DNA of 64,000 bases, taken from the NCBI GenBank assembly GCA_002313635.1, contig DCBY01000012.1, forward strand, positions 7,859-71,858. Direction: 5' to 3'. The translations under genes and the position numbers were made by a program. Source of the stretch: Fusobacteriia bacterium UBA1095 (GTDB lineage: Bacteria > Fusobacteriota > Fusobacteriia > Bac17 > UBA816). The notes below the pieces were generated by a model. The model had not been told where the DNA came from and searched no databases. It worked only from the letters and a program-made list of their open reading frames with translations. Below, one piece after another: positions 4,237-63,626 of the stretch; position 1 is the first letter of the stretch, and the number at the start of each line of letters is the position of its first letter.

Positions 4237-4421
4237 ATTTTCTCCTTATATACGAAAACTAAGAACCTAAATCAAAATTTTAATTCTGATTAGAGACAAG
4301 GAATATTTCTTTTAGTCTAGCTTAAAATATGAAAATTAAATTTTCTTACTTATTTTATCATAACTATCTAAAGCCCACAGAAAAGAAGAAGGAACAAAAA
4401 TGAATCAAAATTTTCTAATAC

Positions 4422-5431: not shown

Positions 5432-6262
5432 TTAAACTACAGAAATCTTAATCTGTTTTTTTAAGCCAATCCTAGTTAGGTATCTTGCAAGCTTTTCATT
5501 TTGAAGTACCTTATCAACATTAATTTTAGAGCTCTTCTGGATATTAAGCAAATTTCTAGCAAGAATAACTAACCTTTTCTCTACTATTAGCTCAGCTAAC
5601 TTATCACTATCAATCCACTTTTCTTTCAGATATTCCTCACCCTTATATTCTATGATCATATCCAAAAATCCTTTTTTAGTATCTGAATCCCAATATTCTA
5701 AATAAAGTATCTTCTCTACTATCTCATCGCTTACAAGGTCTTTTTTCTTTTTGTTTTTATCCTTGTTAAACAACAATTGAAGACTTTCATAAATATCAGC
5801 TTCAACTGTACGGTAGTCAAAGTGTATCTTCTGTCTTCCTTTCTCTACTCTTAAGCAGTTGTCTAGCAATAACTTAAATTCGTCATCAGAAATCTCATCT
5901 ACCTTATCAAGGATAGATTTAATAAGATTAACAGACTTGTATAGAAAAGCTTTCTCTAGGCACTCCATGAAAATTGCTCTTTTCTTGTCTTCCTCCTTAG
6001 ATGAAGCTTTATCCAAAGTCTCCACAAAATGGGATACAGTATCTTCATAGTCCCAAGTAGCAATAATATCCACTAAGGTGTCCTCTTCATCGTTTTCATC
6101 CTTTTCCTGTATCAACCTATCAAGATCTTCACTTTCCACATCATCTAGAAAATCAAATTCATCTTCTGTTGCTTTTTCAATAAAGTCTTTTTGTAAAGAT
6201 TTTTCCTTAGTACTAAGTTCTGGACTTTCACAGCCAATAGTTAAAAGATAAAATAAAATCAT
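5432..6262 (-). CDS. Family B lipoprotein (276 aa), downstream member of a C->B cassette
   Basis: Lipobox IGCE. Same motif set as the other family B members. Lies 15 nt downstream of the family C gene on the same strand. Confidence 0.8.
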   Translation of the reverse strand: MILFYLLTIGCESPELSTKEKSLQKDFIEKATEDEFDFLDDVESEDLDRLIQEKDENDEEDTLVDIIATWDYEDTVSHFVETLDKASSKEEDKKRAIFMECLEKAFLYKSVNLIKSILDKVDEISDDEFKLLLDNCLRVEKGRQKIHFDYRTVEADIYESLQLLFNKDKNKKKKDLVSDEIVEKILYLEYWDSDTKKGFLDMIIEYKGEEYLKEKWIDSDKLAELIVEKRLVILARNLLNIQKSSKINVDKVLQNEKLARYLTRIGLKKQIKISVV

Positions 6263-6277
6263 TGCTCCTCCTATTTA

Positions 6278-7849: not shown

Positions 7850-7982
7850 TTTATTACCATCCTTTTCTTATTTTAATTAAATTAATCTATCACAATCCAA
7901 TCTTAGATATTACATTATAAAATATAAATGATGTCTTAGCAAATAAAATGAAAGAAAGTAGGTAATAATATCTATTATTTTA

Positions 7983-40886: not shown

Positions 40887-42353
40887 TTACTTAGACTCAC
40901 CTGAAATCTTTTTAAATTCCACATCAAGTCTAGAAACAGCGTAAATCCATATAAGAAGTGCTCCTCCTATTATAAACAGAAGGTAAGGTATAACAGCCTC
41001 TATCTTACCTCCAAACAGAGGCAGAAGGAACATAGACAGCAAAGAAGCACCTAAGCTCTTTCCTAACCTACCTCCAGCACCGTCAACAGCAGCTTTACCC
41101 TTAATCTTTGTCTCTTGATCTAAAGGAATATATACAGCTTCCTTTGTAGGATCAAATAGAGTATATTTAAAGGCTTTTATGAACACAACCTGCAACATTC
41201 CAACCATAACAGCCAAGAATAGTGAAGACACTCCAAATGTTGTCTCAAATATAGCCAAATCTCGTCCAAAAAGCATAAAAGTAAAGAAGATCGCACCCAA
41301 AATAGAAGCTATCAAAGGTGTCAAAAGCGCTGCAAGCTTCCAACTCTTTCTTATTATCCATGAGGATGCAAAAAGTATAAGTATTATAGAAGTTATACCT
41401 ATCAAGAAAACCTCTGCAGAGTATATGTTTGAAAGAGTTTGGAAGTCACCACCAGAAGCTTTTTGTAAAGCTTTAACCTGACTCTTCCAAACAGCCTCTA
41501 TAAGACTTATAACAAAACCGTAAGAAAACACAAGTACAGCTATCAATCCTAAATATTTTGATCTAGCCAAAAACATGAAAGATTCCACAAGCCCTAGTTT
41601 TGGCTTCTTTTTCTTGTCTTTCTTTTCTTCTATCTGATAGGCATCAGGATCAGCTGCAATTTTGTCAGTAAACCATTTGTATATAAACATAATAGCCGCA
41701 CCAGAGACTAAAACTATGTATACAAGGTATAACATTGTCTCTCTGCTACCAAACATTCTCAAGAATGCTGCTGAAAAAAGAAGAGCAACATTAGGGCCCA
41801 ATGCCAAGAAACTGTAAAATCTCTTAGATTGTGCAACACTAGTTATCTCATTTATAAATGTCCATATAGCAATAGACATGCCAAATGTTCCCCAAAGCTC
41901 AGCGTGTATGTAAAACAGTGAAAAGAACCAATATCTTATAGCCCCCCACAAACCAAATAAATTTGGTGCAACTGAAATAGCGTAATCAAAAAATGAGTGT
42001 AGAGCTAAGTAATTGCGAGCTGGATAAAGAACAAAGGCAAACAGGGCAAAGAAAGCCACAAAATAAGATATGACTATGTAGAATAGCCCGTGTCTACCAA
42101 ATACGTTACTCAAAGAGTTATACACCAAAGTATATATGATAACCATCGGAGTAACACCAAAAGTCTTTACATAGTAAAGAGTCTCAGCACCAGCGCTGTC
42201 CAAAATGAATATGTCCTTCATATTTCTTAGCATTGAATAATTCAAGCTAACTAAAAGGAAAAGAATAGTCAAAGGTAAAAATTTCTTTAACTCATATCCG
42301 TGTATAGGCCATATAACCGACCTAATAGGACCAAACTTTTTTTGTTCTTGCAT
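40887..42353 (-). CDS. tlc: Nucleotide transporter, ATP/ADP translocase family (NTT/Tlc)
   Basis: The N-terminus IRSVIWPIHGYELKKFLPLTILFLLVSLNYSMLRNMKD closely parallels rickettsial and chlamydial Tlc/Npt1. About 12 TM segments. 488 aa. Confidence 0.85.
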   Translation of the reverse strand: MQEQKKFGPIRSVIWPIHGYELKKFLPLTILFLLVSLNYSMLRNMKDIFILDSAGAETLYYVKTFGVTPMVIIYTLVYNSLSNVFGRHGLFYIVISYFVAFFALFAFVLYPARNYLALHSFFDYAISVAPNLFGLWGAIRYWFFSLFYIHAELWGTFGMSIAIWTFINEITSVAQSKRFYSFLALGPNVALLFSAAFLRMFGSRETMLYLVYIVLVSGAAIMFIYKWFTDKIAADPDAYQIEEKKDKKKKPKLGLVESFMFLARSKYLGLIAVLVFSYGFVISLIEAVWKSQVKALQKASGGDFQTLSNIYSAEVFLIGITSIILILFASSWIIRKSWKLAALLTPLIASILGAIFFTFMLFGRDLAIFETTFGVSSLFLAVMVGMLQVVFIKAFKYTLFDPTKEAVYIPLDQETKIKGKAAVDGAGGRLGKSLGASLLSMFLLPLFGGKIEAVIPYLLFIIGGALLIWIYAVSRLDVEFKKISGESK

Positions 42354-42459: not shown

Positions 42460-42546
42460 GCCGCGGTGGCGGAATGGTAGACGCACAGGACTTAAAATCC
42501 TGAGGGCTTTTTGCCCGTGCCGGTTCAAGTCCGGCTCGCGGTACCA
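42460..42546 (+). tRNA. tRNA-Leu (anticodon UAA), long variable arm, CCA encoded
   Basis: Cloverleaf folded by eye: acceptor GCCGCGG, anticodon loop cuUAAaa, T-arm GCCGGTTCAAGTCCGGC, ACCA end. Confidence 0.85.
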
Positions 42547-42555
42547 GAGTATAGG

Positions 42556-42632
<77 letters not shown>

Positions 42633-42660
42633 AGTGACACTCTGATCCAATTTTTATTGA

Positions 42661-42737
<77 letters not shown>

Positions 42738-42740
42738 AGA

Positions 42741-42817
42741 GGCGATGTAGCTCAGTTGGTAAGAGCGTGCGGTTCATACCCGCAAGGTCGGTGGTTCAAA
42801 TCCACTCATCGCTACCA
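42741..42817 (+). tRNA. tRNA with a CAU anticodon (elongator Met, or Ile2 if lysidinylated)
   Basis: GGCGATGTAGCTCAGTTGGTAAGAGC...uuCAUac...GGTTCAAATCC...CCA. It lacks the initiator features. Confidence 0.8.
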
Positions 42818-50181: not shown

Positions 50182-50269
50182 GAAATTAGGATACCGAATT
50201 TACAAATCTATTTCAAGACAAAAATAAAATAATTTTAAAATTTATCTTTTTTAGTCCAATTTTTATTTT

Positions 50270-50344
50270 CTTTTGCATTTATTCAGCATATTTGGTAGAT
50301 TGTTTTCGCGTTGAAGGCTGCTTTGCAATTCTAGTTAAGGGGGG
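50270..50344 (+). repeat. Promoter+leader unit, copy 1: TTGCAT, 17-nt spacer, TAGATT, then a conserved leader ending in AAGGGGGG (no ATG follows)
   Basis: Roughly 80% identical by eye to the copy at 50856-50930. Followed ~330 nt later by a terminator hairpin at 50671-50701. Confidence 0.5.
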
Positions 50345-50670
50345 ATTTTTTACTAATATCTATTCTTCACAATTTTTATCACTGAGAAAAACTGCGAGCA
50401 ATTCCATTTACAAACCTACTTATTACAGCCTACAATAACATTATCTTTCATTTAGTTTTCAAGTAAGGAAAAATCACCAAATCATTAGGCGAATCTTTTT
50501 CCCAAAAATATCATAAAATTTACGGAAGTATATTCTAACATATTCTCATTTTCACGGCAACGTTTTCGTGTGAAATGAAAAAAATACATTCTTCACGTAA
50601 AAAATAGTGAAATTTCTTCTTTGTCCCCATAGCGGCTTCTTTTAGGAAGCATCTCTTTTACCAAGTATCC

Positions 50671-50701
50671 ATTAACACTACAGCCATAGTGTTAATTTTT
50701 G
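50671..50701 (+). terminator. Rho-independent terminator (attaacact-loop-agtgttaat + TTTTT)
   Basis: 9-bp inverted repeat followed by a T-run. Would terminate a ~400-nt non-coding transcript starting at the copy-1 promoter. Confidence 0.45.
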
Positions 50702-50855
50702 CTAATATGCCTAAACAAAAATACAGAGTAAAATTAAAAAAATATTTTCATAAAATTAAAGTGCGCAAATTATAAGATAATCTTTGAAAAATAAGGGATC
50801 AGAAAACAGAATAATTATTTTAAAGAAATAATTTTTTGAAAATAACAATATTTTT

Positions 50856-50930
50856 CTTTGCATTTATTTAATATATTTGATAGATTAATTGTGCGTTATA
50901 GGTTGCTTTGCAATTCTAAACTAAAGGAGG
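50856..50930 (+). repeat. Promoter+leader unit, copy 2: TTGCAT, 17-nt spacer, TAGATT, then the conserved leader ending in AAGGAGG
   Basis: Paralogous to 50270-50344. Immediately followed by a 20-codon sORF. Confidence 0.5.
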
Positions 50931-50938
50931 AGTTTATT

Positions 50939-51001
50939 ATGAACATTCCAGTTTTCAAGCCTTTACTAAAAGGACCATTTAGCGTTGATATCGCTTGGTA
51001 G
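50939..51001 (+). CDS. Candidate 20-aa micro-ORF MNIPVFKPLLKGPFSVDIAW (possible leader peptide or small protein)
   Basis: Perfect AAGGAGG RBS 8 nt upstream of the ATG. A terminator lies 30 nt downstream. Sits in an otherwise non-coding 900-bp region. Confidence 0.35.
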   Translation: MNIPVFKPLLKGPFSVDIAW

Positions 51002-51031
51002 TATTAAGGCGAATTTTAGTTAATATAAAAA

Positions 51032-51063
51032 AGAGGGAGGTTTTTGACCTCTCTCTTTTTTTG
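51032..51063. terminator. Bidirectional rho-independent terminator (agagggagg-tttttga-cctctctct flanked by an A-run and a T-run)
   Basis: Could serve the plus-strand sORF transcript and the minus-strand 622-aa gene that ends at 51094. Confidence 0.6.
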
Positions 51064-51093
51064 TCTTGTATTAATATTTATATGCAACAAGGA

Positions 51094-52962
51094 CTAATAG
51101 AAATTGGATTCTAGTTTCAGCTCGAATCTATTTTCCTTTTCAATATTAAATTTCATACCACTTTTAGGAAAGGAAGTTAAGAAATTCTCCGTAGTAATCA
51201 CATCTCTATTTCCACTTAATCTTCCTAAATTAAATTCAAAGAAAGAGTTAGCAGCAATTAAGTACCTAATATTGAAAGCAATCCCGAATAGCGATTCTGA
51301 TGACTCATAACCATAGACAAAATTAAAGCTAGAAGAGAGCCTTTCTGTAAATAAATTATACTTAAATAGAGAACAATGCAGGTGAAAAACAATATCTCCA
51401 TCATATAAAATTTTCCCCTTTTTCTGAATATCCATCCCTAGTTCAACAAAATCACTATCATCAAAAACAAAATATTGAACAAGCTTTCCTATACCAAAAT
51501 TTGAATAAAGTACAGACAAAGTTATCCCCTTATCTTCCATCATCTCTAATCCTAGTACGGACGCTTTTATATAATTAAAGTCAAGAAAGCCTACTTCATA
51601 ATCAAAAAATGAACCAAAAATAGATATATGGTCACTAAACTTAACCAAACTTTTGAAGTTAAAGTCGTACAAGCTACCATACCCTTCTACTTTGTAAGAG
51701 TCTTGCATTATACCAAAGCTCAAATACAAATTGGCAAGCATAATTCGAAAATGTGAACTTAGAGAAATTAAGTATTTACTATCTTTTAAGTTATTAGTAT
51801 AGGATATCTTAGGAGAAACATACTTCCCTTCAAACATAGAGGCTTCTATAAACGACGCAGCACTCTTTTTCTTATACTTAATGAAAGAGTTGGCAAACAC
51901 CTCTTTCTCATTGCTCTTACTATCATTGAAATACTGTCCAGCCTCAAATATTCCTGCTCTGATCCGGAAAATATCCAAATCTACATCGGTGTAAAGAAGT
52001 ATGGCATCGGTAGGTGCTAGTCTTAAAATAGGTACAGTAGACATATTACCTGAAGCTCCATAGGTGGCATTTTCCATGCTATTTACAGAGGTAAGGTAGC
52101 TCAATCTAACAAAACTTAAGTTGGGAAAAGAAGTTTTAAAGAAAATACTTGAATCCAAGGAGAGGATCCCAGAACTAGATAACCTATCTTCTAAAGATAT
52201 TTCAGTTCTTGAACTAGCTACAATCTCATCAAAATAGTTTATGTTGAAGTTGAAATCTACACCATTATCCAAGCTAAATTTGTTGTCTAATGTAAGTAAG
52301 ACATCGCTTTTAAATACGTTCTGTTCTGAATCGTCTGATCCTAACAAAAATACAATATTTGATCTATAAATTTTATGTGCAAAAGAGTAATTTATCAAAA
52401 AGCCTTCTCTAGGTTTAGCAACAGGAGAGTAGTAAGAAACTAAAAAATCAGATGAAGATGGAAGTTGTGCATCACCTGAGAAAAAAGAGATACTAGCTCT
52501 GTTAATTTTAAATAAAAGATTAAACCTGTAAAGGGGTAAATTTGTCATAGACACTTCTAAGTTAGAGACCATATTTTCTAAACATAGATTGGCCCTTAAT
52601 CCCACTAAGGGCTTTGAAGAACCAAGAGTAGCACACGGAAAGTATGCTAAATACTCATTACTGTTTTCATTCGAAAGAAAAGAGCCTTTAAAATTTATAT
52701 TATTGAAGATGGACAATCTCAGTTGTTCTTCCTTTTCACTAACTGCTTCTAAATTCTTTACCTGCTCTAATTCCTCATATATATTAGATATTTTATATTC
52801 ATGTTCTGAGGAGAGTGATGCAACTTCTGACAAAACACTCTTAATAGGCGCAACATCAGGATTTTCCAACAAAATCTCTTTGTCTTTAATTGGCACACTA
52901 GCCTTACTATCATCCTCACTTCTCTCACAAGATACAAAAAGAATCAAAAATAAAAGTATCAT
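51094..52962 (-). CDS. Hypothetical lipoprotein / putative outer-membrane protein (622 aa)
   Basis: Lipobox LFVSCE. Beta-rich composition. C-terminal ...LKLESNFY with a terminal aromatic residue. Lies directly downstream of gyrA. Confidence 0.55.
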   Translation of the reverse strand: MILLFLILFVSCERSEDDSKASVPIKDKEILLENPDVAPIKSVLSEVASLSSEHEYKISNIYEELEQVKNLEAVSEKEEQLRLSIFNNINFKGSFLSNENSNEYLAYFPCATLGSSKPLVGLRANLCLENMVSNLEVSMTNLPLYRFNLLFKINRASISFFSGDAQLPSSSDFLVSYYSPVAKPREGFLINYSFAHKIYRSNIVFLLGSDDSEQNVFKSDVLLTLDNKFSLDNGVDFNFNINYFDEIVASSRTEISLEDRLSSSGILSLDSSIFFKTSFPNLSFVRLSYLTSVNSMENATYGASGNMSTVPILRLAPTDAILLYTDVDLDIFRIRAGIFEAGQYFNDSKSNEKEVFANSFIKYKKKSAASFIEASMFEGKYVSPKISYTNNLKDSKYLISLSSHFRIMLANLYLSFGIMQDSYKVEGYGSLYDFNFKSLVKFSDHISIFGSFFDYEVGFLDFNYIKASVLGLEMMEDKGITLSVLYSNFGIGKLVQYFVFDDSDFVELGMDIQKKGKILYDGDIVFHLHCSLFKYNLFTERLSSSFNFVYGYESSESLFGIAFNIRYLIAANSFFEFNLGRLSGNRDVITTENFLTSFPKSGMKFNIEKENRFELKLESNFY

Positions 52963-52973
52963 CTTACCTCACT

Positions 52974-55385
52974 CTATATCCTAAGTTTGGCCATATCCAC
53001 AACAGTCTCTTCTTCTCTCAGCTTCATTATTCTAACACCCTGGGTAGCTCTACCAGTAGTAGAAATGTTTTTAGATATAGTCCTTATTATGGAACCCTTT
53101 GAAGTTATCAATATAACCTCATCCTCTGGAGATACATCCTCAGTAGTTATAACCCTACCTGTTTTTTCTGTAACTCTCATGTTGATAACTCCCTTTCCAC
53201 CTCTGGAAATTATCCTATAATTAGATATTTTACTCTTCTTACCATAACCTTTTTCAGAAATAGTTAGCACTTGAGTTTCAGGAGAAGATACGGCTACTCC
53301 AGCTACTACCTTATCCTCTGATCTAAGGTTAATTCCCTTCACACCGAATGAGTTTCTACCAGAACCTCTTACATCTGCAGACTTAAATCTAATAGAATAA
53401 CCATTTCTGGTTGCCATTAATATGTTATCGTCCTCATTCACCAACAGGGTATTTATCAAATCATCACTAGGCCTCAATTTTATAGCTATAATTCCAGACT
53501 TATTAATGTTTTTAAACAGATTTAGACTTGTCTTCTTGACTATACCGGCCGTTGTTACAAAAATTAAGTTCTTATCCTCACTCATATCTCTTGTCTTTAT
53601 AATGGACTTAACTCTCTCTCCTACACTTAGAGGAACTATATTAGAGAAGAGTCTTCCCTTTGAAGAACGGCTCAGTTCAGGAATATCATAAACCTTTATG
53701 CTGTAAACTTTTCCTCTATTTGTAAATAGTAGAAGGGTATCTAAATTTTTGGCATAAGTTGCACTTCTTAGGAAGTCTTCATCTGAAAGATTTTGACCTA
53801 TATAACCCTTACCTCCTCTATTCTGTGTCTTATAGTTGTCAAGATTTATTCTCTTAACATAACCTCTATTTGTTATAGTTATCAAGACATGATCATCACT
53901 TATCATATCTTCTATAGAGATGTTATCTATGTCTCCAACTATCTCACTTCTTCTTTTGTCACCATAGTTATCCTTTATCTCTCTAAGTTCTTTCTTTATT
54001 ATGTCATAAATCCTAGACTCATCTTGCAATATTGCTTTTAGTTCTTTTATACTTTCCTCTAAAGATGCTATCTCTTCATCCAACTTTTCAACTTCTAAGC
54101 TGGTAAGTTTTTGAAGTCTCATCTCCAATATTGCTTTTGCTTGTACTTCACTCAAGTCAAATCTTACCATTAAAGTACCATGAGCTTCTTTAACATCTTT
54201 AGAAGATTTAATTATCCTTACAACTTCATCAATATTGGATATAGCTATTTTAAATCCTAAAAGTATATGGTATCTTCTCTCAGCTTTATCCAACTCAAAT
54301 TGTGTTCTTCTAGTTACAACTTCAAACCTATGAGATGTATGAAGACCAATTATCTCCTTTAGATTAAGGACTTTTGGGATATTTTTGTCTAAGGCAAGCA
54401 TAATAGCACCAAAGGTTACCTCTAAGTTAGTGAATTTATAGATTTTATTTAAAACTATATCTGCATCCTCTCCCTTTTTAACCTCTATATATATTCTTAT
54501 CCCATTCCTATCTGATTCATCTCTCAAATCAGAGATACCTTCTAATTTTTTTTCTCTAGCTAAATCAGCTATTTGCTCTACAAGTTTGGACTTGTTTACC
54601 TGATAGGGAAGCTCTGTTATTATTATTGACTCTACTCCAGATTTGCTCTCCTCTATATGAGCTCTTCCTCTAACCTTCATTTTTCCTCTACCCTTAGTAT
54701 AGGTATCTATAAGTCCTTGCTTTCCATATACTATCCCAGCTGTAGGAAAGTCAGGTCCTTTTACATACTCCATAAGTTCTAAAGCTGTTATCTCCATATT
54801 ATCTATATAAGCTAAAGTTGCATCAATAACTTCAGAAAGGTTGTGTGGAGGAATGTTGGTAGCCATACCTACAGCTATACCTGAAGATCCATTCAGAAGA
54901 AGGTTAGGAACTTTAGCAGGAAGAACTTCTGGCTCATACAGTGTCTCATCAAAATTCTTTCTAAAAGGAACAGTGTTTTTGTCAATGTCAACGATAAGTT
55001 CATTAGTAATTTTAGTCATTCTAACTTCTGTATATCTTAGAGATGCTGCAGAGTCACCATCTACAGATCCAAAATTACCTTGACCATCAATTAGAAGATG
55101 TCTTGTATTAAAGTTTTGTGCCATTCTAACCATAGAATTATAAACAGCTTGGTCACCATGAGGGTGATACTTAGCAAGTACATCCCCAACTACTCTTGCG
55201 GATTTTTTGTAAGGCCTGTTGTAGTTCATACCATTTTCATTCATTGAAAATAGTATTCTTCTATGAACAGGTTTTAACCCATCTCTGACATCTGGCAGTG
55301 CTCTACCTACAATGACACTCATCGAGTAATCTAAATAAGATTTCTTTATTTCATTCTCTATAAATACTTTAATATCTTCTGACAT
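52974..55385 (-). CDS. gyrA: DNA gyrase subunit A
   Basis: AMRYTE-like active-site region [12 protein letters not shown] and QRD-like region [17 protein letters not shown]. 803 aa with a beta-pinwheel C-terminal domain. Confidence 0.95.
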
Positions 55386-55395
55386 TTTTCTCCTT

Positions 55396-57297
55396 TTAAA
55401 TATCTAAATTTTCTACATAAAGAGCGTTCTTCTCAATAAACTCTCTTCTGTCACTCACTTCATCTCCCATGAGCATTGTGAATAGTCTATCAGCTTCTAC
55501 AGCATCTTCAACTGTAACTTGAAATAACCTTCTATTCTCTTTATTCATAGTAGTCTCCCAAAGCTGGTCAGTATTCATTTCACCCAGACCCTTGTATCTC
55601 TGTATGTCAAAGGAGTCTTTACCGTTTGTCTTTTCACGAAGATCTTCTTCATCGTAGCAATAAATTATCTTTTTACCCCTCTTAATTCCATATAGGGGTG
55701 GATTAGCCTTGTAGACATTACCATTAGTTATAAGCTCTGACATGAATCTATAGAAGAATGTAAGAAGAAGAGTTGCTATATGAGCTCCGTCAACGTCAGC
55801 ATCCGTCATTATTATTATTTTTGAATATCTAAGCTTATCAATATTAAATTCATCACCTATACCTGCACCAAACGCAGTTATCATATTTCTTATTTCTTCG
55901 TTAGAAAGGGCCTTGGCAAGACCAGATTTCTCAACATTTAGAACCTTACCTTTTAAAGGAAGTACAGCTTGTGTCTTCCTATCTCTAGCATTTTTTGTAG
56001 TTCCTCCCGCTGATTCACCCTCTACCAGGTATATCTCACTTTCAAAAGGATCTTTTGATGAACAATCGTACAACTTTCCAGGAAGTGTAGAGACCTCAAG
56101 AGGATTCTTTCTAAGAACCATCTCTCTTGCTTTCTTCGCAGCTTCTCTTGCTTTCTTAGATAACAACATCCTATCAACCAATACTTTTGGAACCTTAGGT
56201 TTATCTAAAAAATAATCTTTTAGCTTTTCAAGCATCATTGCAGAAACTATACCTGATACCTTAGAATTTCCTAGCTTTGTCTTAGTTTGTCCTTCAAATT
56301 GAGGTTCAGGAATTTTTACACTTACTATTGCAACTATTCCTTCTCTAACATCGCTACCAACAAATCCATCTTTACTATTCTTGAAGTAACCTAACTCTTT
56401 AGCAGCATCATTGAAGACTCTAGTAAGCGAAGACTTAAATCCACTAACGTGAGTTCCTCCCTCATGCGTATTTATGTTGTTAACAAAAGAGAATATACTC
56501 TCCTTTTGTCTGTTGTTATAGACAATAGCTACCTCGATTGATGCATCCTTTGATTCAGATTTCATGTAAATAGGTTCAATTAAATTCTCTTGATCTCTAG
56601 TTATGTCCTTAACAAAGTCAACTATACCTCCCTCAAAGTAGAAATCATTTTTTAATATATTTTCATAATCTCTCTCATCACTTACCAAAATTCTTAGTCC
56701 CTTGTTAAGATAAGCAAGTTCCTTACACCTCTTAGATATTGTCTCAAAAGAGAAGTCAACAGTCTCAAAAATGGTAGGTTCAGCTTTGAACCTAACGGTA
56801 GTCCCTGTATTTTCTGCATCACCAATAATTTTTATCTCTTCTTCAGGAACTCCAAGATTGTACTTTTGATAATGAACTTTGCCATCTCTCTTAATTTCTG
56901 CTTCAAGCCAGGTAGATAGGGCATTCACAACAGAGACACCCACACCATGAAGTCCTCCTGATATCTTATACCCTTTGTTCTCAAACTTACCTCCAGCATG
57001 AAGAACAGTCATAACAATCTCTAATGCTGATTTATTATGCTTAGAATTTTTTTCTACAGGAATACCTCTACCATTGTCTGATATTTCAATAATATTGTCT
57101 GGTAAAATTCTAACATTTATAACATCACAATAACCTGCTAAAGCCTCGTCAACACTGTTGTCAACTACTTCATAAACAAGATGGTGTAATCCTCTCTCTG
57201 AGGTAGATCCAATATACATACCCGGTCTTTTACGGACAGCATCCAGTCCCTCCAGGACGGTTATATCATTAGCACCATATTCTTCTCTTTTTTTCAA
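55396..57297 (-). CDS. gyrB: DNA gyrase subunit B
   Basis: GHKL ATPase (GLHHLVYEVVDNSVDE, GLHGVGVSVVNALS), TOPRIM (EGESAGG) and PLKGKVLNVEK. 633 aa. Confidence 0.95.
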   Translation of the reverse strand: MKKREEYGANDITVLEGLDAVRKRPGMYIGSTSERGLHHLVYEVVDNSVDEALAGYCDVINVRILPDNIIEISDNGRGIPVEKNSKHNKSALEIVMTVLHAGGKFENKGYKISGGLHGVGVSVVNALSTWLEAEIKRDGKVHYQKYNLGVPEEEIKIIGDAENTGTTVRFKAEPTIFETVDFSFETISKRCKELAYLNKGLRILVSDERDYENILKNDFYFEGGIVDFVKDITRDQENLIEPIYMKSESKDASIEVAIVYNNRQKESIFSFVNNINTHEGGTHVSGFKSSLTRVFNDAAKELGYFKNSKDGFVGSDVREGIVAIVSVKIPEPQFEGQTKTKLGNSKVSGIVSAMMLEKLKDYFLDKPKVPKVLVDRMLLSKKAREAAKKAREMVLRKNPLEVSTLPGKLYDCSSKDPFESEIYLVEGESAGGTTKNARDRKTQAVLPLKGKVLNVEKSGLAKALSNEEIRNMITAFGAGIGDEFNIDKLRYSKIIIMTDADVDGAHIATLLLTFFYRFMSELITNGNVYKANPPLYGIKRGKKIIYCYDEEDLREKTNGKDSFDIQRYKGLGEMNTDQLWETTMNKENRRLFQVTVEDAVEADRLFTMLMGDEVSDRREFIEKNALYVENLDI

Positions 57298-57728
57298 ACT
57301 TCCTCCGATCTCATTCTGGTTAAAGAGTAAGAAGATATACTCTCCAATCTCTCTCTTAAATCCCTATCTTTTATCCTAGAAAATAGATTCTTGGTATTAA
57401 AGAGCTTTTCTCCTACATATTTTACATTCTGGTTATAAAAAGCTAAGTTCTCTGATGAAGACCTACTGTAAGACGTATTTAGGATTTTTACTCTCTTAAT
57501 CTGTACGCCCATTTTTTCTCTGATATTTTTCATTATATCATGTCTTAGAGCATTTATGTGATGAGACCAAGAAGGAGATAAAACGTATATAAAAAGCACT
57601 CCTCTTTCTATTTTCTGAGGAGAACACTTTTCAGAAAGCCTCTCACCCACTATTGATCTCCATAGTACCCCTATGTTGCACTTACCTAAACATTGATCTG
57701 TATCCGATATTTTCTTCAAAGATATCAT
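57294..57728 (-). CDS. DUF721-like protein (the small gene conserved upstream of gyrB)
   Basis: 144 aa. WRSIVGE...GVLFIYVLSPSWSHHINALRHDI follows the DUF721 pattern. ATGA overlaps with both gyrB and dnaA. Confidence 0.5.
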   Translation of the reverse strand: MISLKKISDTDQCLGKCNIGVLWRSIVGERLSEKCSPQKIERGVLFIYVLSPSWSHHINALRHDIMKNIREKMGVQIKRVKILNTSYSRSSSENLAFYNQNVKYVGEKLFNTKNLFSRIKDRDLRERLESISSYSLTRMRSEEV

Positions 57729-59062
57729 TTTAATATATTCTGCCTTATTTGATCTATCTCAAATTTGAGTGATTTATCAAATGCTACTTCTGAATCTATC
57801 TTATTAACACTGTGCATAACAGTCGTGTGATCTCTTCCACCAAAAGAGTCTCCTATAGATGAGAAAGGTAAATTTAACATGTCCCTTAAAAGGTACATAG
57901 ATATTTGCCTCGCTTTTGCTATCTCTTTTTTTCTTTTGTTTGACTCAATATCCGATATAGGCACACCAAAGAATTCTGACACAGTTTTTATTATTTTACC
58001 TTTGTTTATTTTTTTGGCTCTGTCTTCCATAAAGCCTTTAAAAACTTCTTTTATCATATCAAAGTCTACGTCTCTACCTAGAAGGGAGGCTTTTGCTACA
58101 ACCCTATTTAAAGAGCCTTCTAATTCTCTTATGTTTGATTTGATAGCTTCAGCAATATAGTTTATTGCATCTTCTGGGATGGTTATCCCCTCTGCCTCCG
58201 CCTTATTTTTCAAAATGGCTACTCTAGTCTCATAATCAGGCGCTTTGATATCTGCCACTAATCCCCAAGTAAAACGAGAAACCAAACGCTCCTCAATGTT
58301 TTTTATCTCTTGGGGAGGTCTGTCACTAGATACTACTATCTGTCTGGAGTACTGATGAAGAGAATTAAAAGTATGGAAGAACTCTTCTTGTGTACTCTCC
58401 TTCCCAGCTATGAATTGTATGTCATCTATCAGTAGTGCATCTAATTTTCTATACTTCTCCCTGAACTGTGCCATTCTGTCCTTTTTTAGAGAGTTTATAA
58501 GATCATTGGTAAATTGCTCCGATGAACAGTAATAAACTTTTGCCTCTGGATTTTGAGAAGTTATGTAGTTACCTATTGAGTGCATAAGGTGAGTTTTTCC
58601 TAGTCCTACCCCTCCATATATGAAAAGCGGATTGTAGACCTTACCAGGGGATATTGCAACTGCTCTGGAAGCAGCATGTGCAAACTCATTACTCTTTCCA
58701 ACAATAAAATTTGAAAAGTTATATTTAGAGTCGGGTAGGTTATTCTTTTTAGTGTTGGCATTGAAACCTCTCTCTCTTGTTTCAACTAACCTCTCCTCGT
58801 TCAATTTTTTATTTGGGGATACAACTACTTCCACATCTTTGCCATCGCCATCTATGAATAGCTCTCTTATACTCTCTTTTATTGCATCTCTGTACTCTTT
58901 GTTTATCTTCTCTTTAGTGAACTCATTATCTACAGCTATAACTAATTTGTCATCTTCAAAACTCATAGGGCTAGCTGAAGAGAACCAAGTTTTAAATTCG
59001 CTCTTGCTGAGCTTGAGTTCCAGATTCTTTTTTATACTTTCCCAAGCTCTATTGGCCTGCAT
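57725..59062 (-). CDS. dnaA: Chromosomal replication initiator protein DnaA
   Basis: AAA+ box YNPLFIYGGVGLGKTHLMHSIGN, sensor motifs, and the C-terminal DNA-binding domain (SDIESNKRKKEIAKARQISMYL..). 445 aa. Confidence 0.95.
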   Translation of the reverse strand: MQANRAWESIKKNLELKLSKSEFKTWFSSASPMSFEDDKLVIAVDNEFTKEKINKEYRDAIKESIRELFIDGDGKDVEVVVSPNKKLNEERLVETRERGFNANTKKNNLPDSKYNFSNFIVGKSNEFAHAASRAVAISPGKVYNPLFIYGGVGLGKTHLMHSIGNYITSQNPEAKVYYCSSEQFTNDLINSLKKDRMAQFREKYRKLDALLIDDIQFIAGKESTQEEFFHTFNSLHQYSRQIVVSSDRPPQEIKNIEERLVSRFTWGLVADIKAPDYETRVAILKNKAEAEGITIPEDAINYIAEAIKSNIRELEGSLNRVVAKASLLGRDVDFDMIKEVFKGFMEDRAKKINKGKIIKTVSEFFGVPISDIESNKRKKEIAKARQISMYLLRDMLNLPFSSIGDSFGGRDHTTVMHSVNKIDSEVAFDKSLKFEIDQIRQNILK

Positions 59063-59495
59063 TCTTCCTCCTAAATTTTAAGAAGATTATATCATCTAAT
59101 TCTTAATAAATTTAGTGTTTTTTAACAAATTACCTCTCAAACTTTGTTTTTGTTAACTTATCTTCATTTTCCACTTTTTAACATTGTTTTCAACATATTG
59201 TTTTTATTCACTTTAACTTTTTTCAAAAATTTTAAAGCTAGAATTTATCTTCCTTTCTAAGTACATTACTTTATGTTGAAAATTGTGTTGAAAACTTTTT
59301 ATTAAAATTCTGTTTTTTAGTTTTCTCCATCTTTTCATATAATTTTAAACGTTATTTTTAACATACTTTTTAACAATTGAAATTCAGTATTAATAGAGTA
59401 TAGCGTACTGTTTCAACAAATTAACATCCCCTAATACTATAACTACTTAACATTTTAGTAGTTAAGAGTCTCTTAATAGGGATTGTTTAAAACTT
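59063..59495. promoter_or_regulatory. Candidate oriC / divergent dnaA-rpmH control region with four copies of a DnaA-box-like 9-mer TTTTCAACA/TGTTGAAAA
   Basis: Very AT-rich 433-bp spacer. The 9-mers lie at about 59187-59195 and 59410-59418 (forward) and 59274-59282 and 59287-59295 (inverted). Additional TTTTCCACT and TTATCTTCA variants are present. Confidence 0.5.
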
Positions 59496-59501
59496 TTGTA
59501 T

Positions 59502-59530
59502 TTGACAGTATCCGCTAAATTTTGTAGAAT
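59502..59530 (+). promoter_or_regulatory. Consensus sigma70 promoter for rpmH-rnpA-yidC: TTGACA, 17-nt spacer, TAGAAT
   Basis: tttgacagtatccgctaaattttgtagaat lies ~50 nt upstream of the rpmH TTG start. Confidence 0.7.
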
Positions 59531-59579
59531 TTCTAGAGTAGAAAAACCAAAAAATAAAATTGAGAGATTAGGTGAGAAA

Positions 59580-59711
59580 TTGAAACGAACTTATCAACCC
59601 AACAAATCGAAGAGAAAGAAAAATCACGGATTTAGAGCTAGAACTAGAAAGAGTTCGGGCAGTGTTTTGAAAAGCAGAAGAGCCAAAGGTAGAAAAGTTT
59701 TGTCAGCTTGA
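59580..59711 (+). CDS. rpmH: 50S ribosomal protein L34 (TTG start)
   Basis: (M)[42 protein letters not shown] is canonical L34. The longer ORF in the supplied track is a 5' over-extension. RBS AGGTGA. Confidence 0.9.
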
Positions 59712-60013
59712 ATACACTGAAGACTTCTAAAGACTTTTCAAATGTGTTTGATGGAGGTAAAAAATTTATTACAGCGACCTCTATATTCTTTTATTTAAAA
59801 ACTTCTTCAGGTGACGGGAGGTTAGGTATATCCGTGAGTAGAAGAGTGGGAAATGCTGTTCAGAGGAATAAGATCAAGAGAATAGTTAGAAATATCTTTA
59901 GATTCTTTTCCCCGAAAGGTTTTGATGTTGTAGTCTTGTGTAGAAGAGGCGAGGTATTTAACATGTCTACTTTTGCCAGAGACTTTCTAAAATTTTGGAA
60001 GAAGGTGTACTAA
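59708..60013 (+). CDS. rnpA: RNase P protein component
   Basis: Position immediately after rpmH with overlap. Basic 101-aa protein with an RnpA-like motif ([19 protein letters not shown]). Confidence 0.75.
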
Positions 60014-60014
60014 A

Positions 60015-60629
60015 ATGTTCAAAAGTTTTTTTAATTTTGTTTTTCAATCTTTTTTAAATCTATTTATCTTTATAGATGGCTATGTTGGGAATAAGTCTAT
60101 AACTATAATTATAGTAGCCATACTGCTGAGGTTAATTCTTTTTCCTTTCAGTGCTAACTATACTAAATTTACGACTTCAGTTAAAAAATTAGATCCTGAA
60201 ATAAAGAGAATTAGAGAACAAGAAAAAGATTTGGCTAAAGCTGAAATGAAAATTTCTGAAATTTACAAAAGAGAGGGAGTTAGTCCTTTTTCTGGACTTC
60301 TGTATATCGCACTTCAAATATTTTTGATGATTTCCTCTATCTCCGTAATTAGAAGTCAAAGCTTTGTTGGTGCTGATGATCTCCTTTTTGGATTTAAATT
60401 AGTTGAGAGAGATCCATACTACATACTACCTATCATCTCTACGTTGGTATTTTTTGTAAATATGCCTAGGTCAAATCCATCAAAGGGAATTTCTGAATAT
60501 GCCCTAGTTGGAATTATGTTTTTTGTAAATATGAGATGGTCAATTGCCTTGTTGTTATTTTTTACAACTACTTCTGTTGTATCATTAGCTCAAGATTTTT
60601 TAATAAAGAGATTTTCTTTAAACTCTTAA
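60015..60629 (+). CDS. yidC: Membrane protein insertase YidC/Oxa1 family, minimal form (204 aa)
   Basis: The core IIIVAILLRLILFPFS...KKLDPEIKRIREQ...EMKISEIYKREGVSPFSGLLYIALQIFLMISS matches the conserved YidC TM2-loop-TM3 core. There is no large periplasmic domain. Confidence 0.7.
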   Translation: MFKSFFNFVFQSFLNLFIFIDGYVGNKSITIIIVAILLRLILFPFSANYTKFTTSVKKLDPEIKRIREQEKDLAKAEMKISEIYKREGVSPFSGLLYIALQIFLMISSISVIRSQSFVGADDLLFGFKLVERDPYYILPIISTLVFFVNMPRSNPSKGISEYALVGIMFFVNMRWSIALLLFFTTTSVVSLAQDFLIKRFSLNS

Positions 60630-60639
60630 GGAGTACAAA

Positions 60640-61932
60640 TTGGACGATACCATAGTAGGAATATCTTCTTCTGGAGCCATTTCTATATTAAGACTCTCAG
60701 GAAGTAAGAGTTTAGAAATAGTCTCTGAGTTACTCTCTTCTAAAAATAAGTTGAAGGATAGGGAGATATGTTATGGAAAGATTGTTGACAAAGGTGTAGA
60801 GATAGACGAGGTCTTGGTTGCTTTTATGAAATCTCCAAAATCATATACCAAAGAAGATGTTGTCGAGATTTATTGTCATGGTAATAGAATAATAGCTCAA
60901 AAGATAATGAATTCTCTAGTAGATAGGGGTGCTAAGATAGCAGACAGAGGGGAATTTACTAAAAGAGCTTTCCTAAATGGAAGAATAGATTTGACTCAAG
61001 CTGAGTCTGTATATGACCTGATTAATGCCAATTCTGAAAAGAGTATAGAAAATTCATTAAGGAATTTAAATGGATTTTTAAGAAAAAAAGTACAAAAAAT
61101 GAGAGAGGTCATATTAAATTCCTTGGCCAATATAAATGTTGTCTCAGATTACCCTGAAGAGGTAGAGGATGAATTTTTTCATAGAAAAGAGATAGAGAGT
61201 CTCTTAACTGAGATTGACTCTCTAATTTCATCTTACTCTACAGGAAGAATTTTAAGGGAGGGTATAAAAGTTGTTATAGTTGGTAGACCTAATGTAGGTA
61301 AGTCTAGCCTCATGAATAGACTTTTGAAGAGCGATAGAGCAATAGTTAGTGACGTAAAAGGAACTACGAGAGATATTATAGAAGAGAGAATTAGAATAAA
61401 GGATATACCTATAACTATCCTGGATACTGCTGGTATAAGAGATAGCCAAGATAAGGTAGAGAAAATAGGGATAGATCTTTCCAAAAAGAGTATTGAAGAT
61501 GCAGATATCATACTTTTTGTTCTGGATTCTAGTGAAGGTTTTACTGAAGAAGATAGAAAAATAATGGAAATAGTTAAGCATAAAAAATACATTTTAATAA
61601 AAAATAAGAGAGATTTAGCTTACTTAGATCAGATAGATGGTCTGAATTTCTCTGCTACAGAGGATGAGATAGAGATAATAGAAAATAGAATAGAAAAATT
61701 GGCATTAGATTGTGATGTATCACAAGAAGCTATAGTAGATAACTTGAGGCATAAAAATCTCTTTGTCAAAACCAAAAAATCTCTAGAAGAATTTTTGCAA
61801 AGTGATGCTCCACTTGATATAGCTTCTATTCATTTGTCCCAGGCTATAAACAGCTTAGGTGAAATAATAGGAGAGGTCACAACTGAAGACTTGCTTGACA
61901 ACATATTTCAAAATTTTTGTGTAGGAAAATAA
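60640..61932 (+). CDS. mnmE: tRNA modification GTPase MnmE
   Basis: G-domain VVIVGRPNVGKSSLMNRL...DTAGIR...KNKRDL and the C-terminal CVGK motif. 430 aa. Confidence 0.88.
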   Translation: MDDTIVGISSSGAISILRLSGSKSLEIVSELLSSKNKLKDREICYGKIVDKGVEIDEVLVAFMKSPKSYTKEDVVEIYCHGNRIIAQKIMNSLVDRGAKIADRGEFTKRAFLNGRIDLTQAESVYDLINANSEKSIENSLRNLNGFLRKKVQKMREVILNSLANINVVSDYPEEVEDEFFHRKEIESLLTEIDSLISSYSTGRILREGIKVVIVGRPNVGKSSLMNRLLKSDRAIVSDVKGTTRDIIEERIRIKDIPITILDTAGIRDSQDKVEKIGIDLSKKSIEDADIILFVLDSSEGFTEEDRKIMEIVKHKKYILIKNKRDLAYLDQIDGLNFSATEDEIEIIENRIEKLALDCDVSQEAIVDNLRHKNLFVKTKKSLEEFLQSDAPLDIASIHLSQAINSLGEIIGEVTTEDLLDNIFQNFCVGK

Positions 61933-62081: not shown

Positions 62082-63626
62082 ATGTTAATTTTTATTTTCT
62101 TTTTTAGTTTTTTGAATGCATTTTCTGTTTCAAAAGAGCTGAGTAATCTAGATAAGCATCTTGAGTATCTATCGGAGAGAGGTGTTATAGATTCAACACA
62201 TGTTTCCTTTATAAAGAACAACAATTTAACAAAAAAAGATAGCATATTCTATTTTTATAAAGTGCTGAAGGTTGTAGACAGAGATAAAGCTACCAAGGAA
62301 GATTTAGAAGTTTTAGAGAGTATAGTAGCGGATATATCAGAGTATATAAATGAGTTTAAATTAGAATTAGAGAGTAATGACAGTAAGTTTAAATCCTACT
62401 CAAGACAATTCGAAGATACTTTAGATAAAGTAGAAGAGTACGAAAAGACACTTCATGATCTGGAAGAAGAACTTTCAAAATTGAGAGAAGTAGTGGAGAA
62501 AAGCATAGATTATGACAAAAATAACTTAAGGAAATTTTTGAAAAAAGTTGACGTCTCTTTAGGCCTTAAAGGTGCTTTTGGTAAATCTAAACTCTCTTCA
62601 AAGTATGTTTATGAAATAGACCTTAATATGAAAATAGATGGAGATTTTAAGGTCAGAGCCTATAACTCTAATTTTCAATCCTTTACCAGTCTCTACACCT
62701 TTACTTCTACAACTGAGTTAGGTAACCTAAATTTCCATTCTCCTAAATATAAGAAAGCGTTTGTATCTCCTACAAAAGAGATTTTTCTAGAAATATTTGA
62801 CAAATTTGGTCTGGGTTTTTACAATGATTCATTTCAGTCCTATGTACTTTTTCCATCAGAAGGAAGTGATGAAGATATAAACTTCATCTTTAATTTAGAT
62901 ACGTCCATATTAGGTCTGTCACTGCTTGTAGATCCTTTTAGGGTAGATAATAGTATTTTAAGTTATGTTCCTTTTGCTGAATTATCCCTGAATATACCTG
63001 TATCTAGCTCATTTTTCTTTGGACCTGGTTTGGAAAAAGGGAATGACAAATATATGGCTCTATTGTTTTTAGGGTTTGAAGGATATGGCATAGATCTGAA
63101 TTTGAAATACAAGCATGAGCTGCTTGGTGAGAAAGATATGGTTTTAGTCCCAAGATTTGCTTATAGGTTCAATGATAAAAATAAAATAGGTGCCCTCATT
63201 GATTGGTCCCTACTAGAAAAAGAGGATTTTATAAACAGATTTAAGATAGTACTTGACAGTTTTATATCCAGTCATTTTGAAATGAGACTAATTTTTGGTA
63301 TGAAAAAGGAGAATGGCTATTCAGTGAACTTTTTAGCAGGTAGAGTGAATTATAGTAGCGAAGATATCAACTTTTTCTTGGGAGCCTTTTTAAAAGATCT
63401 GAATGAGAGAAAATTGGCTCTAGCAGTAAATGTAGATTTTCCAACTGAATTTTACAAAATTTTTGTAAGGTACATATACAGTAACTTTTTGGAATGCTAT
63501 AAGGATTTAAATTTTGATTTTGAAGGAAATCATGTCTCCACTACCTCTCAGGTTGGGTGCCTAGAGTGCACCGGTTCAAACAGAAATTTTGGAGAACTGT
63601 TTATAGGTTTAGAAATAGATATATGA
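62082..63626 (+). CDS. Hypothetical secreted protein (514 aa): N-terminal coiled-coil then a beta-rich domain
   Basis: Signal peptide MLIFIFFFSFLNAFS. Heptad-rich E/K/L segment at aa 60-150. Beta-strand-like remainder. Confidence 0.5.
   Translation: MLIFIFFFSFLNAFSVSKELSNLDKHLEYLSERGVIDSTHVSFIKNNNLTKKDSIFYFYKVLKVVDRDKATKEDLEVLESIVADISEYINEFKLELESNDSKFKSYSRQFEDTLDKVEEYEKTLHDLEEELSKLREVVEKSIDYDKNNLRKFLKKVDVSLGLKGAFGKSKLSSKYVYEIDLNMKIDGDFKVRAYNSNFQSFTSLYTFTSTTELGNLNFHSPKYKKAFVSPTKEIFLEIFDKFGLGFYNDSFQSYVLFPSEGSDEDINFIFNLDTSILGLSLLVDPFRVDNSILSYVPFAELSLNIPVSSSFFFGPGLEKGNDKYMALLFLGFEGYGIDLNLKYKHELLGEKDMVLVPRFAYRFNDKNKIGALIDWSLLEKEDFINRFKIVLDSFISSHFEMRLIFGMKKENGYSVNFLAGRVNYSSEDINFFLGAFLKDLNERKLALAVNVDFPTEFYKIFVRYIYSNFLECYKDLNFDFEGNHVSTTSQVGCLECTGSNRNFGELFIGLEIDI

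Follow-up and report, generated by a model that had tools for sequence, protein, structure and literature searches.

A predicted chromosomal origin with variant DnaA boxes in the rpmH-dnaA spacer of a marine Fusobacteriota-affiliated bacterium

Introduction

Where does chromosome replication start in a bacterium whose dnaA gene is not followed by dnaN and has no canonical DnaA box beside it? The question is raised by a 64,000-nucleotide (nt) stretch of contig DCBY01000012.1 from Fusobacteriia bacterium UBA1095, here called the window, in which dnaA runs into a DUF721 gene, gyrB and gyrA and diverges from rpmH, rnpA, yidC and mnmE. An earlier note, made from the letters of the sequence, had described this gene order, which was borne out by Pfam matches, and had proposed the spacer between dnaA and rpmH as a candidate origin (oriC) in which a repeated 9-mer served as a non-canonical DnaA box. 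From the comparisons described below we conclude that the 517-nt spacer is very probably the single, monopartite chromosomal origin of an uncultured marine Fusobacteriota-affiliated bacterium, and its earlier standing as an oriC candidate is strengthened by a predicted unwinding core present in nine lineages, together with arrays of boxes.

The nearest named relative is Haliovirga abyssi (L087 among our locus labels), with a DnaA 55% identical to that of the window, and the metagenomic relatives reach 59–78%. Six relatives in this latter range share the layout rnpA-rpmH, spacer, dnaA, dciA (the DUF721 gene), gyrB and gyrA, with spacers of 425–542 nt and dciA products of 140–165 amino acids (aa), and they yield, with the window, seven spacers for alignment.

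The repeated 9-mer and the DnaA box

The spacer extends over positions 59063–59579 and has a G+C content of 23% (77% A+T). Within it TTTTCAACA occurs in three exact copies (59187+, 59274- and 59286-), while the fourth site, at 59410, reads GTTTCAACA, so that the repeat and its clustering reported earlier stand and the count of four exact copies does not. For the pattern TTTTYAACA, seven of the 15 matches in the window lie within 59119–59375 (260 nt), the number expected for the whole window being 4.25, and for TTTT[CTA]AACA eight of 18 matches fall in 0.8% of the window (binomial P ~7e-13). The clustering is far above chance.

Comparison of the spacer with those of related genomes, which the earlier note had suggested, placed TGTTGAAAA first among the 9-mers found de novo, with 24 copies and occurrences in all seven spacers, and TGTTAAAAA second. 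Relative to 164 kb of DNA flanking the same loci, the two are enriched 88-fold and 52-fold, respectively. Among single-base variants position 5 alone varies freely (G > A > T), and on alignment it coincides with the N of TTATNCACA / TGTGNATAA. Seven of nine positions agree with TGTGNATAA, and the differences, G4->T and T7->A, correspond to C6->A and A3->T in TTATCCACA. The spacer contains no match to TTATCCACA at up to one mismatch and none to TTWTNCACA. A repeat finder resolved the boxes into 12-nt tandem pairs and triplets and one inverted pair. The ranking, the enrichment and the alignment, together with the polarity of the trios described below, all favour the prediction that the 9-mer is a DnaA-box variant and, as canonical boxes are absent from the spacer, a non-canonical one; the variant nonetheless has precedents.

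The box consensus proposed for Mollicutes is TT(A/T)TC(C/A)ACA and that for Acholeplasma TT(T/A)T(C/T)(C/A)ACA (PMC3322544). These are AT-rich, PolC-containing lineages related to Firmicutes, and TTTTCAACA and TTTTTAACA both fit, while TTTTAAACA (one full copy, 59484–59492) and the one-mismatch TTTTAAACG (59343–59351) fall outside the consensus. Moreover, whereas A6 is an alternative to C in Mollicutes, it fully replaces C in the full-consensus boxes of this predicted origin, which belongs to a different phylum. For Lawsonia, TTTTCAACA has served as an 'imperfect DnaA box' motif (PMC2671203).

One could read the 9-mer as the binding site of another protein, a nucleoid or transcription factor, or as a by-product of AT-rich composition, given the high A+T content of the spacer, its lack of canonical boxes and the presence within TGTTGAAAA of a -35-like TTGAAA that is used by two weak promoter-like matches. 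We consider this highly improbable, because dinucleotide-preserving shuffles fail to reproduce the 9-mer count, the 88-fold enrichment is over flanks of similar composition, the sole variable position falls on the N of TGTGNATAA, the variant lies within the proposed Mollicute DnaA-box consensus (PMC3322544), and deeper relatives carry canonical TGTGGATAA/TGTGGAAAA at homologous positions.

Architecture of the predicted origin

The elements recognised in the spacer are as follows, in order of position.

59064–59071, minus strand: candidate Shine-Dalgarno sequence of dnaA, GGAGGAAG.
59086–59094, minus strand: probable dnaA promoter, extended -10 TGATATAAT, a TG-N-TATAAT-like element found in the same place in most relatives.
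59119–59127, minus strand: predicted DnaA box TGTTAAAAA, immediately preceding the dnaA promoter.
59167–59195, minus strand: promoter-proximal three-box array, TGTTGAAAA-caa-TGTTAAAAA-GTGGAAAA, in 12-nt register (TGTTGAAAA 59187–59195; TGTTAAAAA 59175–59183; aGTGGAAAA 59167–59175).
59274–59294, plus strand: two TGTTGAAAA boxes with 12-nt spacing, oriented against the other arrays; the pair is conserved at least in part in 7/7 spacers.
59343–59375, minus strand: three-box array with 12-nt spacing (TGTTAAAAA 59367–59375; TGTTAAAAA 59355–59363; weak cGTTTAAAA 59343–59351).
59410–59426, minus strand: box pair of the predicted basal unwinding system (proximal TGTTAATTT 59418–59426; distal TGTTGAAAC 59410–59418).
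59427–59430, minus strand: G-rich 4-mer GGGA, between box pair and trios.
59431–59448, minus strand: six DnaA-trios, 5'-AAG TAG TTA TAG TAT TAG-3', five of the six with a central A.
59449–59483, no strand: putative DNA unwinding element of ~35 nt, not conserved in sequence and placed from the polarity of the unwinding system.
59484–59492, plus strand: inverted 'left' box TGTTTAAAA; it precedes the rpmH -35 by 10 nt and lies at a distance of 53 nt from the G-rich 4-mer.
59502–59530, plus strand: rpmH promoter TTGACA-17-TAGAAT, with an 11/12 consensus match, firing away from the unwinding element.

Read in the direction of dnaA, the order of the blocks is rpmH promoter, inverted box, ~35 nt, trios, 4-mer, box pair, arrays and dnaA -10. 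Alignment of the seven spacers gave 60 invariant columns, 46 of which, by our own tally of the column list, lie in boxes, trios, the G-rich 4-mer or the rpmH -10. The hexamers of the rpmH promoter are largely conserved in the alignment, and the -10 has three invariant columns.

A basal unwinding system was described for B. subtilis and has been predicted in 85% of surveyed bacterial origins (PMC8287927). The published search rules are at least three consecutive trios (3'-NAN-5', consensus 3'-GAT-5') within 16 bp of a box, a G/C-rich gap of ~4 bp and tandem boxes, the better-conserved box usually lying 10–13 bp from the trios (PMC8287927), and the trio consensus is 3'-GAT-5' / 5'-TA(A/G)-3' (PMC8287927, PMC5742627). 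The core in the window accords with these rules in having tandem boxes, trios with a central A, a 4-nt GGGA gap and 12 bp between the distal box and the first trio.

Six trios, a 4-nt G-rich gap and two tandem boxes, with 12 bp from the distal box to the first trio, are present in 9/9 lineages with a complete spacer. The start-to-start offset of the box pair in the window is 8 nt. In all nine lineages the six box-proximal triplets carry a central A in 6/6 or 5/6 cases, and the 4-mer at the same position reads GGGA, GGGG, GGAG, GTGG, GTGA, GTAT or GTAA. The core is (TAG)6-GTGG-TGTGGAAAA-GTTGAAAC in L093 and TAGTAGTATTAGTAGTAG-GTGA-TGTGGAAAT-GTGAGAAG in L094, and in Haliovirga a box array lies just upstream of dnaA, within the 100 nt examined. 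The polarity of the core is that of the C. difficile element 5'-(TAG)n-GGTG and also that of the R1 side of E. coli oriC.

On the rpmH side of the core, a box in left-box orientation occurs 50–53 nt from the 4-mer in 9/9 lineages, as a perfect TTATCCACA in L094, and the putative unwinding element is bounded by the trios and by this conserved inverted box at a fixed distance. A mirror-image second unwinding system on the other strand was considered, on the basis of an ATCC and some CTA triplets after the left box and of a palindrome at 59440–59464, and was rejected, the bottom-strand triplets not being conserved in the other eight lineages; on this side only the inverted box and the 50–53-nt distance are conserved.

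In the promoter-proximal array TGTTGAAAA is invariant in 7/7 aligned spacers and the remainder is conserved in six of them, and the same array is present in L093, L094 and L087 with flanking boxes of the TGTGGAAAA type. It is a probable region of dnaA autoregulation and DnaA oligomerisation.

Such a role leads to a second alternative, in which the boxes are real DnaA sites that serve only as operators of the divergent dnaA and rpmH promoters, and the origin lies elsewhere, for example beside dnaN. Several boxes do flank the extended -10 of dnaA and the -35 of rpmH, dnaN has not been located, it is well established for model bacteria that DnaA regulates its own gene through promoter boxes, and some phyla have their oriC away from dnaA. 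Nevertheless, we regard this alternative as improbable, since a pure operator needs no six trios, G-rich gap and polar box pair kept in nine lineages amid diverging sequence, and since both gene orientation and third-position AT skew switch exactly at the spacer.

Strand bias and points against the assignment

Fusobacteria combine PolC with a strongly strand-biased gene distribution (PMC4070872). Within the window and ~5 kb beyond it, the range covered for skew and orientation, 36 of the 45 genes to the left of the spacer lie on the minus strand and all five to the right on the plus strand; on contig L081 all 11 called genes of that side and rpmH are on the plus strand. The AT skew at third codon positions is -0.07 for left-hand minus-strand (presumed leading) genes, -0.055 for right-hand plus-strand (presumed leading) genes and +0.18 for left-hand plus-strand (presumed lagging) genes. 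It flips as expected if forks diverge from the spacer, which adds a little to the case.

The cumulative GC skew has its minimum for the 64 kb at ~59–60 kb. It was discarded as independent evidence of an origin because the sense-strand GC skew is 0.22 on either strand: the overall skew tracks the coding strand, and the local minimum therefore mainly restates gene orientation. This weighs against our placing of the origin, and so do the following points: the A+T content of the spacer is highest outside the putative unwinding stretch, the trio-proximal box TGTTAATTT matches the lineage consensus poorly, and, with dnaN not located, a second box cluster may exist beside it. As to the poor match, a published analysis found that conservation is generally weaker in the trio-proximal box (PMC8287927).

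Box spelling across lineages and the DnaA protein

Boxes of the forms TGTG.A[AT]AA (G4) and TGTT.A[AT]AA (T4) were counted in each lineage and set against the identity of its DnaA to that of the window.

L094: DnaA 52% identical, five G4, one T4.
L093: DnaA 54% identical, six G4, three T4.
L091: DnaA 59% identical, three G4, three T4.
L092: DnaA 59% identical, one G4, three T4.
L090: DnaA 61% identical, no G4, nine T4.
L086: DnaA 64% identical, no G4, eight T4.
L089: DnaA 69% identical, one G4, seven T4.
L088: DnaA 78% identical, no G4, six T4.
Window: DnaA 100%, no G4, eight T4.

In Haliovirga the 100 nt upstream of dnaA contain two copies of TGTTGAAAA and one of TGTGGATAA. The T4 variant thus belongs to the Fusobacteriota box repertoire and has displaced the canonical form in the clade of the window. 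In the spacer of the window itself, A has replaced C at box position 6 in every full-consensus box (8:0) and only the degenerate aGTGGAAAA (59167–59175) retains C there. Because the deep relatives hold canonical TGTGGATAA/TGTGGAAAA boxes at homologous positions, the variant can be tied to DnaA. Along the series TGTGGATAA, TGTGGAAAA, TGTTGAAAA, TGTTAAAAA the G+C content drops from 33% to 11%, which fits AT mutational pressure acting inside the set of sequences that the initiator tolerates. The change of box is best read as a lineage-specific drift from G to T, and the displacement of dnaN as an older event.

The changed base, C6 of TTATCCACA, is normally read directly by DnaA. The window DnaA matches the B. 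subtilis protein (8btg) with E=2.7e-130, domains I, III (AAA+) and IV are all present by Pfam, and the Walker A (GGVGLGKT) and Walker B (LLIDD) motifs are visible in its translation. Alignment to E. coli domain IV (1J1V) showed R399, R432, D433, H434, T435 and H439, which are listed as base-contacting (PMC5043019, PMC5742627), to be conserved. The residue corresponding to P423 is Ser in the window, and Ser, Ala, Val, Thr or Met throughout the Fusobacteriota-like clade, including users of canonical boxes. A change of DnaA specificity as the cause of the box shift was accordingly rejected, the listed contact residues being unchanged and the P423 replacement being shared with canonical-box relatives. 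The only clade-specific change seen is at the position of E. coli A410, which is Ser in the clade of the window and Ala in the deep relatives, and which is not on the base-contact list. As a speculation, position 423 might help DnaA to tolerate A at box position 6, and the phylum-wide replacement of P423 by Ser/Ala is a candidate for having made the box change permissible. Every full-consensus origin box in the clade appears to have moved from TGTGGAWAA to TGTT[G/A/T]AAAA. The stronger proposition, that the DnaA of the clade has come to favour the T/A form or even to depend on it, seems to us doubtful, if conceivable.

The dnaA operon and the rpmH side

The genes on either side of the spacer, with their Pfam matches, are the following.

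52974–55385, minus strand: gyrA, 803 aa (DNA_topoisoIV, E=6.6e-166, and DNA_gyraseA_C).
55396–57297, minus strand: gyrB, 633 aa, TTG start (HATPase_c, DNA_gyraseB, Toprim, DNA_gyraseB_C).
57294–57728, minus strand: dciA (DUF721), 144 aa (PF05258 DciA, E=1.4e-13).
57725–59062, minus strand: dnaA, 445 aa (DnaA_N, Bac_DnaA, Bac_DnaA_C).
59580–59711, plus strand: rpmH (ribosomal protein L34), TTG start (Ribosomal_L34).
59708–60013, plus strand: rnpA (Pfam match).
60015–60629, plus strand: yidC, short, 204 aa (Pfam match).
60640–61932, plus strand: mnmE (Pfam match), followed by tRNA-Gln.

The overlaps of dnaA with the 144-aa DUF721 gene and of the latter with gyrB, as reported in the earlier note, amount to 4 nt each: an ATGA is common to the end of dnaA and the beginning of dciA, and a TTGA to the end of dciA and the TTG start of gyrB. 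A GGAGGA Shine-Dalgarno sequence precedes this TTG start, the gyrB gene call is identical on public contigs of the same organism, and gyrB and gyrA are 10 nt apart. Thus dnaA-dciA-gyrB-gyrA form a tightly packed operon, probably coupled in translation. The mechanically called rpmH open reading frame (59496–59711) is over-long, and comparison with relatives set the true start at TTG 59580 (LKRTYQPN..., 43 aa before the stop).

The DciA assignment rests on a domain score of 51.3 bits against a Pfam cut-off of 24. The DUF721/DciA domain occupies approximately residues 14–82 of the 144-aa protein and is followed by a C-terminal tail of ~60 aa, and the conserved Trp is present as W23 in VLWRSIVGE, aligned with the W of the L093 DciA (for its relevance, see bioRxiv 10.1101/2022.01.24.477630). 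According to published work, the usual place of dciA is beside gyrB within the replication operon, as documented in 15 phyla including Fusobacteria (PMC5109545), and the gene in the window conforms, lying directly upstream of gyrB and overlapping it.

DciA proteins of 140–165 aa in the clade of the window compare with 280–284 aa in the deeper Fusobacteriota, where the long genes lie at 12723–13577 in L093, 12979–13821 in L094 and 2863–3708 in L087. The N-terminal DUF721 domain is the only part that aligns between the window protein and the long ones, the two domains being 38% identical in the case of the 284-aa L093 protein, and the long C-terminal part has been lost, or swapped for the ~60-aa tail, in the clade of the window.

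Absence of dnaN and recF, and synteny in relatives

A Pfam scan of every open reading frame of at least 90 aa in the 64 kb gave no match to DNA_pol3_beta or to SMC_N/RecF, in agreement with the earlier statement that dnaN and recF are missing from beside dnaA, and dnaN also from the rpmH side. Nor were dnaN or recF found, on contigs of the same organism, in the ~5 kb past the right end of the window, where a dnaN gene would, according to the earlier note, have spoken against its reading. The distance to dnaN must therefore exceed 59 kb in one direction and 10 kb in the other.

Haliovirga abyssi, L093 and L094 (DnaA 52–55%) have the order dnaA, yaaA (S4_2), recF, dciA (~280 aa), a gene of ~85 aa, gyrB and gyrA, with jag, yidD and mnmG kept on the other side, and dnaN is missing beside dnaA there too. 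The departure from the common arrangement described earlier therefore holds for dnaN but is not special to this genome: since the deeper Fusobacteriota also lack it, dnaN left the locus before these lineages diverged. Subsequently, yaaA and recF also disappeared from the locus in the clade of the window and DciA became shorter, which is the lineage-specific part; jag, mnmG and, in most members, yidD were lost from the other side.

The window comes from metagenomic assemblies, and the loss of dnaN and recF could in principle reflect an assembly artefact, a chimeric join or a collapsed region. That is extremely improbable, as the same DnaA is indexed in 145 public assembly blocks, on contigs of up to 174 kb (those inspected come from marine metagenomes, Tara Oceans among them), independent NCBI, JGI and ENA contigs of 57–154 kb agree on the gene order, the coding overlaps of dnaA, dciA and gyrB leave no space for an insertion, and the arrangement recurs in six other lineages.

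Two additional genes belong to the surroundings of the locus. Directly after gyrA lies a gene for a protein of ~560–705 aa with no Pfam match (window 51094–52962, minus strand; homologues L085 16149–17972, L090 16762–18879, L091 16251–17969 and L092 16354–18042), which starts 11–18 nt downstream of gyrA in the window, L085/L086, L091 and L092 and ~520 nt downstream in L090. The deeper relatives do not have it and carry an ABC transporter after gyrA, and the gene may have been added to the replication/gyrase operon in this clade only. On the other side, mnmE and tRNA-Gln are followed by a gene for a conserved 514-aa protein, also with no Pfam match (window 62082–63626, plus strand), with homologues of 513–578 aa in those relatives whose sequence extends far enough. 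For the gene after it (L081 4316–5440), which follows in the window, L085/L086 and L089, a weak match to PGI is all that was obtained.

A model for initiation

We envisage that DnaA would bind some twelve 9-mers that read TGTT[G/A/T]AAAA (= TTTTNAACA), the lineage version of TGTGNATAA (= TTATNCACA), and that the 12-nt tandem spacing of most of these boxes could support a DnaA oligomer. From the core of trios, 4-mer and box pair, a filament of ATP-DnaA would grow along the strand with the trios and melt the stretch of ~35 nt towards rpmH, the far side of which would be closed by the conserved inverted box and the outward-firing rpmH promoter. Loading of the helicase DnaB would follow, assisted by DciA, which is encoded in the compacted, presumably translationally coupled dnaA-dciA-gyrB-gyrA operon, and the boxes around the dnaA promoter probably autoregulate this operon.

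Comparison with known systems

The closest parallel to the predicted core is the Firmicute basal unwinding system, exemplified by the incC boxes 6/7 and trios of B. subtilis and by oriC2 of C. difficile, which has tandem boxes, a ~4-nt G/C-rich gap, 5'-TAG-3' trios, the same polarity and a distal box ~12 bp from the trios (PMC8287927, PMC7561715). In contrast, the core in the window lies upstream of dnaA, in the rpmH-dnaA spacer, and not between dnaA and dnaN, and the origin is monopartite because dnaA runs directly into dciA. Furthermore, its boxes are TGTT[G/A/T]AAAA with none canonical, the region is closed at 50–53 nt by an inverted box, and the likely helicase partner is DciA instead of DnaD/DnaB/DnaI.

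As in the M. tuberculosis operon dnaA-dnaN-recF-dciA-gyrB-gyrA (Rv0001-Rv0006), dciA comes after dnaA and immediately before gyrB-gyrA, but dnaN, yaaA and recF are missing from the window and 4-nt overlaps join dnaA, dciA and gyrB. The window resembles Haliovirga abyssi, L093 and L094 in the divergence of rpmH-rnpA-yidC-mnmE from dnaA and in having no dnaN after dnaA, and it shares with L093 and L094 the core of trios, G-rich 4-mer and box pair, whereas the boxes of all three are mostly the canonical TGTGGATAA/TGTGGAAAA. The Pseudomonas oriC likewise occupies the region that separates rpmH from a divergently transcribed dnaA, but origins of that type belong to Gammaproteobacteria, with canonical boxes and with dnaN after dnaA.

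Each element has a precedent, in the unwinding system, in the box consensus and in the position of dciA beside gyrB. New, as far as we could find in the literature, are the full replacement of full-consensus canonical boxes across a clade, the inverted box closing the unwinding region at a fixed distance, the extent of operon compaction and the origin map of a previously undescribed marine lineage.

Other features of the window

Large ankyrin-repeat proteins are encoded at 13–1368 (plus), 1504–4236 (minus) and 8246–10120 (plus), with Ank_2 E-values down to 1e-154, and weaker ankyrin matches occur at 6278–7849, 13214–14794 and 28972–30516, all on the minus strand. A full-length TLC/NTT ATP/ADP transporter (NTT) is encoded at 40887–42353 on the minus strand (PF03219, E=8e-134). 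A survey from 2017 reported no NTT from Fusobacteria (PMC5381601), and our literature search found no paper on fusobacterial endosymbionts with nucleotide transporters or on such a lineage. The ankyrin proteins, the NTT and the gene loss at the origin locus suggest a host-associated, possibly intracellular energy-parasite lifestyle; the lineage concerned is globally distributed, marine and Fusobacteriota-like, and we take the clade to be marine Fusobacteriota that are probably host-associated.

A gap of ~900 nt at 50182–51093 is free of genes, as it is on other contigs of the organism. It includes the intrinsic terminator of the upstream gene and two 70-nt direct repeats (50264–50333 and 50849–50918), 81% identical and 585 nt apart, and an Rfam E-value search of the gap gave nothing credible. 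A predicted AAA-ATPase (PF09820) with a PD-(D/E)XK nuclease domain (PF08011) is encoded at 10337–11953 on the plus strand, and L091 carries several copies between yidC and mnmE (3185–4552, 6177–6491 and 6510–7889); these genes may be mobile or defence-related. A tRNA-Leu(taa) followed by three tandem tRNA-Met(cat) genes lies at 42460–42817 on the plus strand, opposite to the surrounding genes.

Significance

The analysis provides a precise, predicted map of boxes, trios, unwinding stretch and promoters for a phylum in which we found no experimental work on origins in the literature, and for a lineage of which only metagenomic sequences are known. Origin finders that use the E. coli box at up to one mismatch would report zero boxes in this spacer. 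If the clade-wide change in what DnaA prefers were true, it would mean that an initiator and its origin had been retuned in nature, step by step, by mutational pressure towards AT, a process for which L091 and L092 would serve as intermediates and L093, L094 and Haliovirga as ancestral-like material for comparison. The hint of a lifestyle given by the ankyrin proteins and the NTT may outweigh the origin in interest.

Current models are not overturned. The replication operon can shrink far, to dnaA-dciA-gyrB-gyrA, with the genes of the initiator and the helicase operator probably coupled in translation. The boxes turn over while the layout stays, the whole set having become richer in A+T with an unchanged unwinding geometry, which fits the view that geometry, rather than the exact sequence of the boxes, is the conserved core of the origin.

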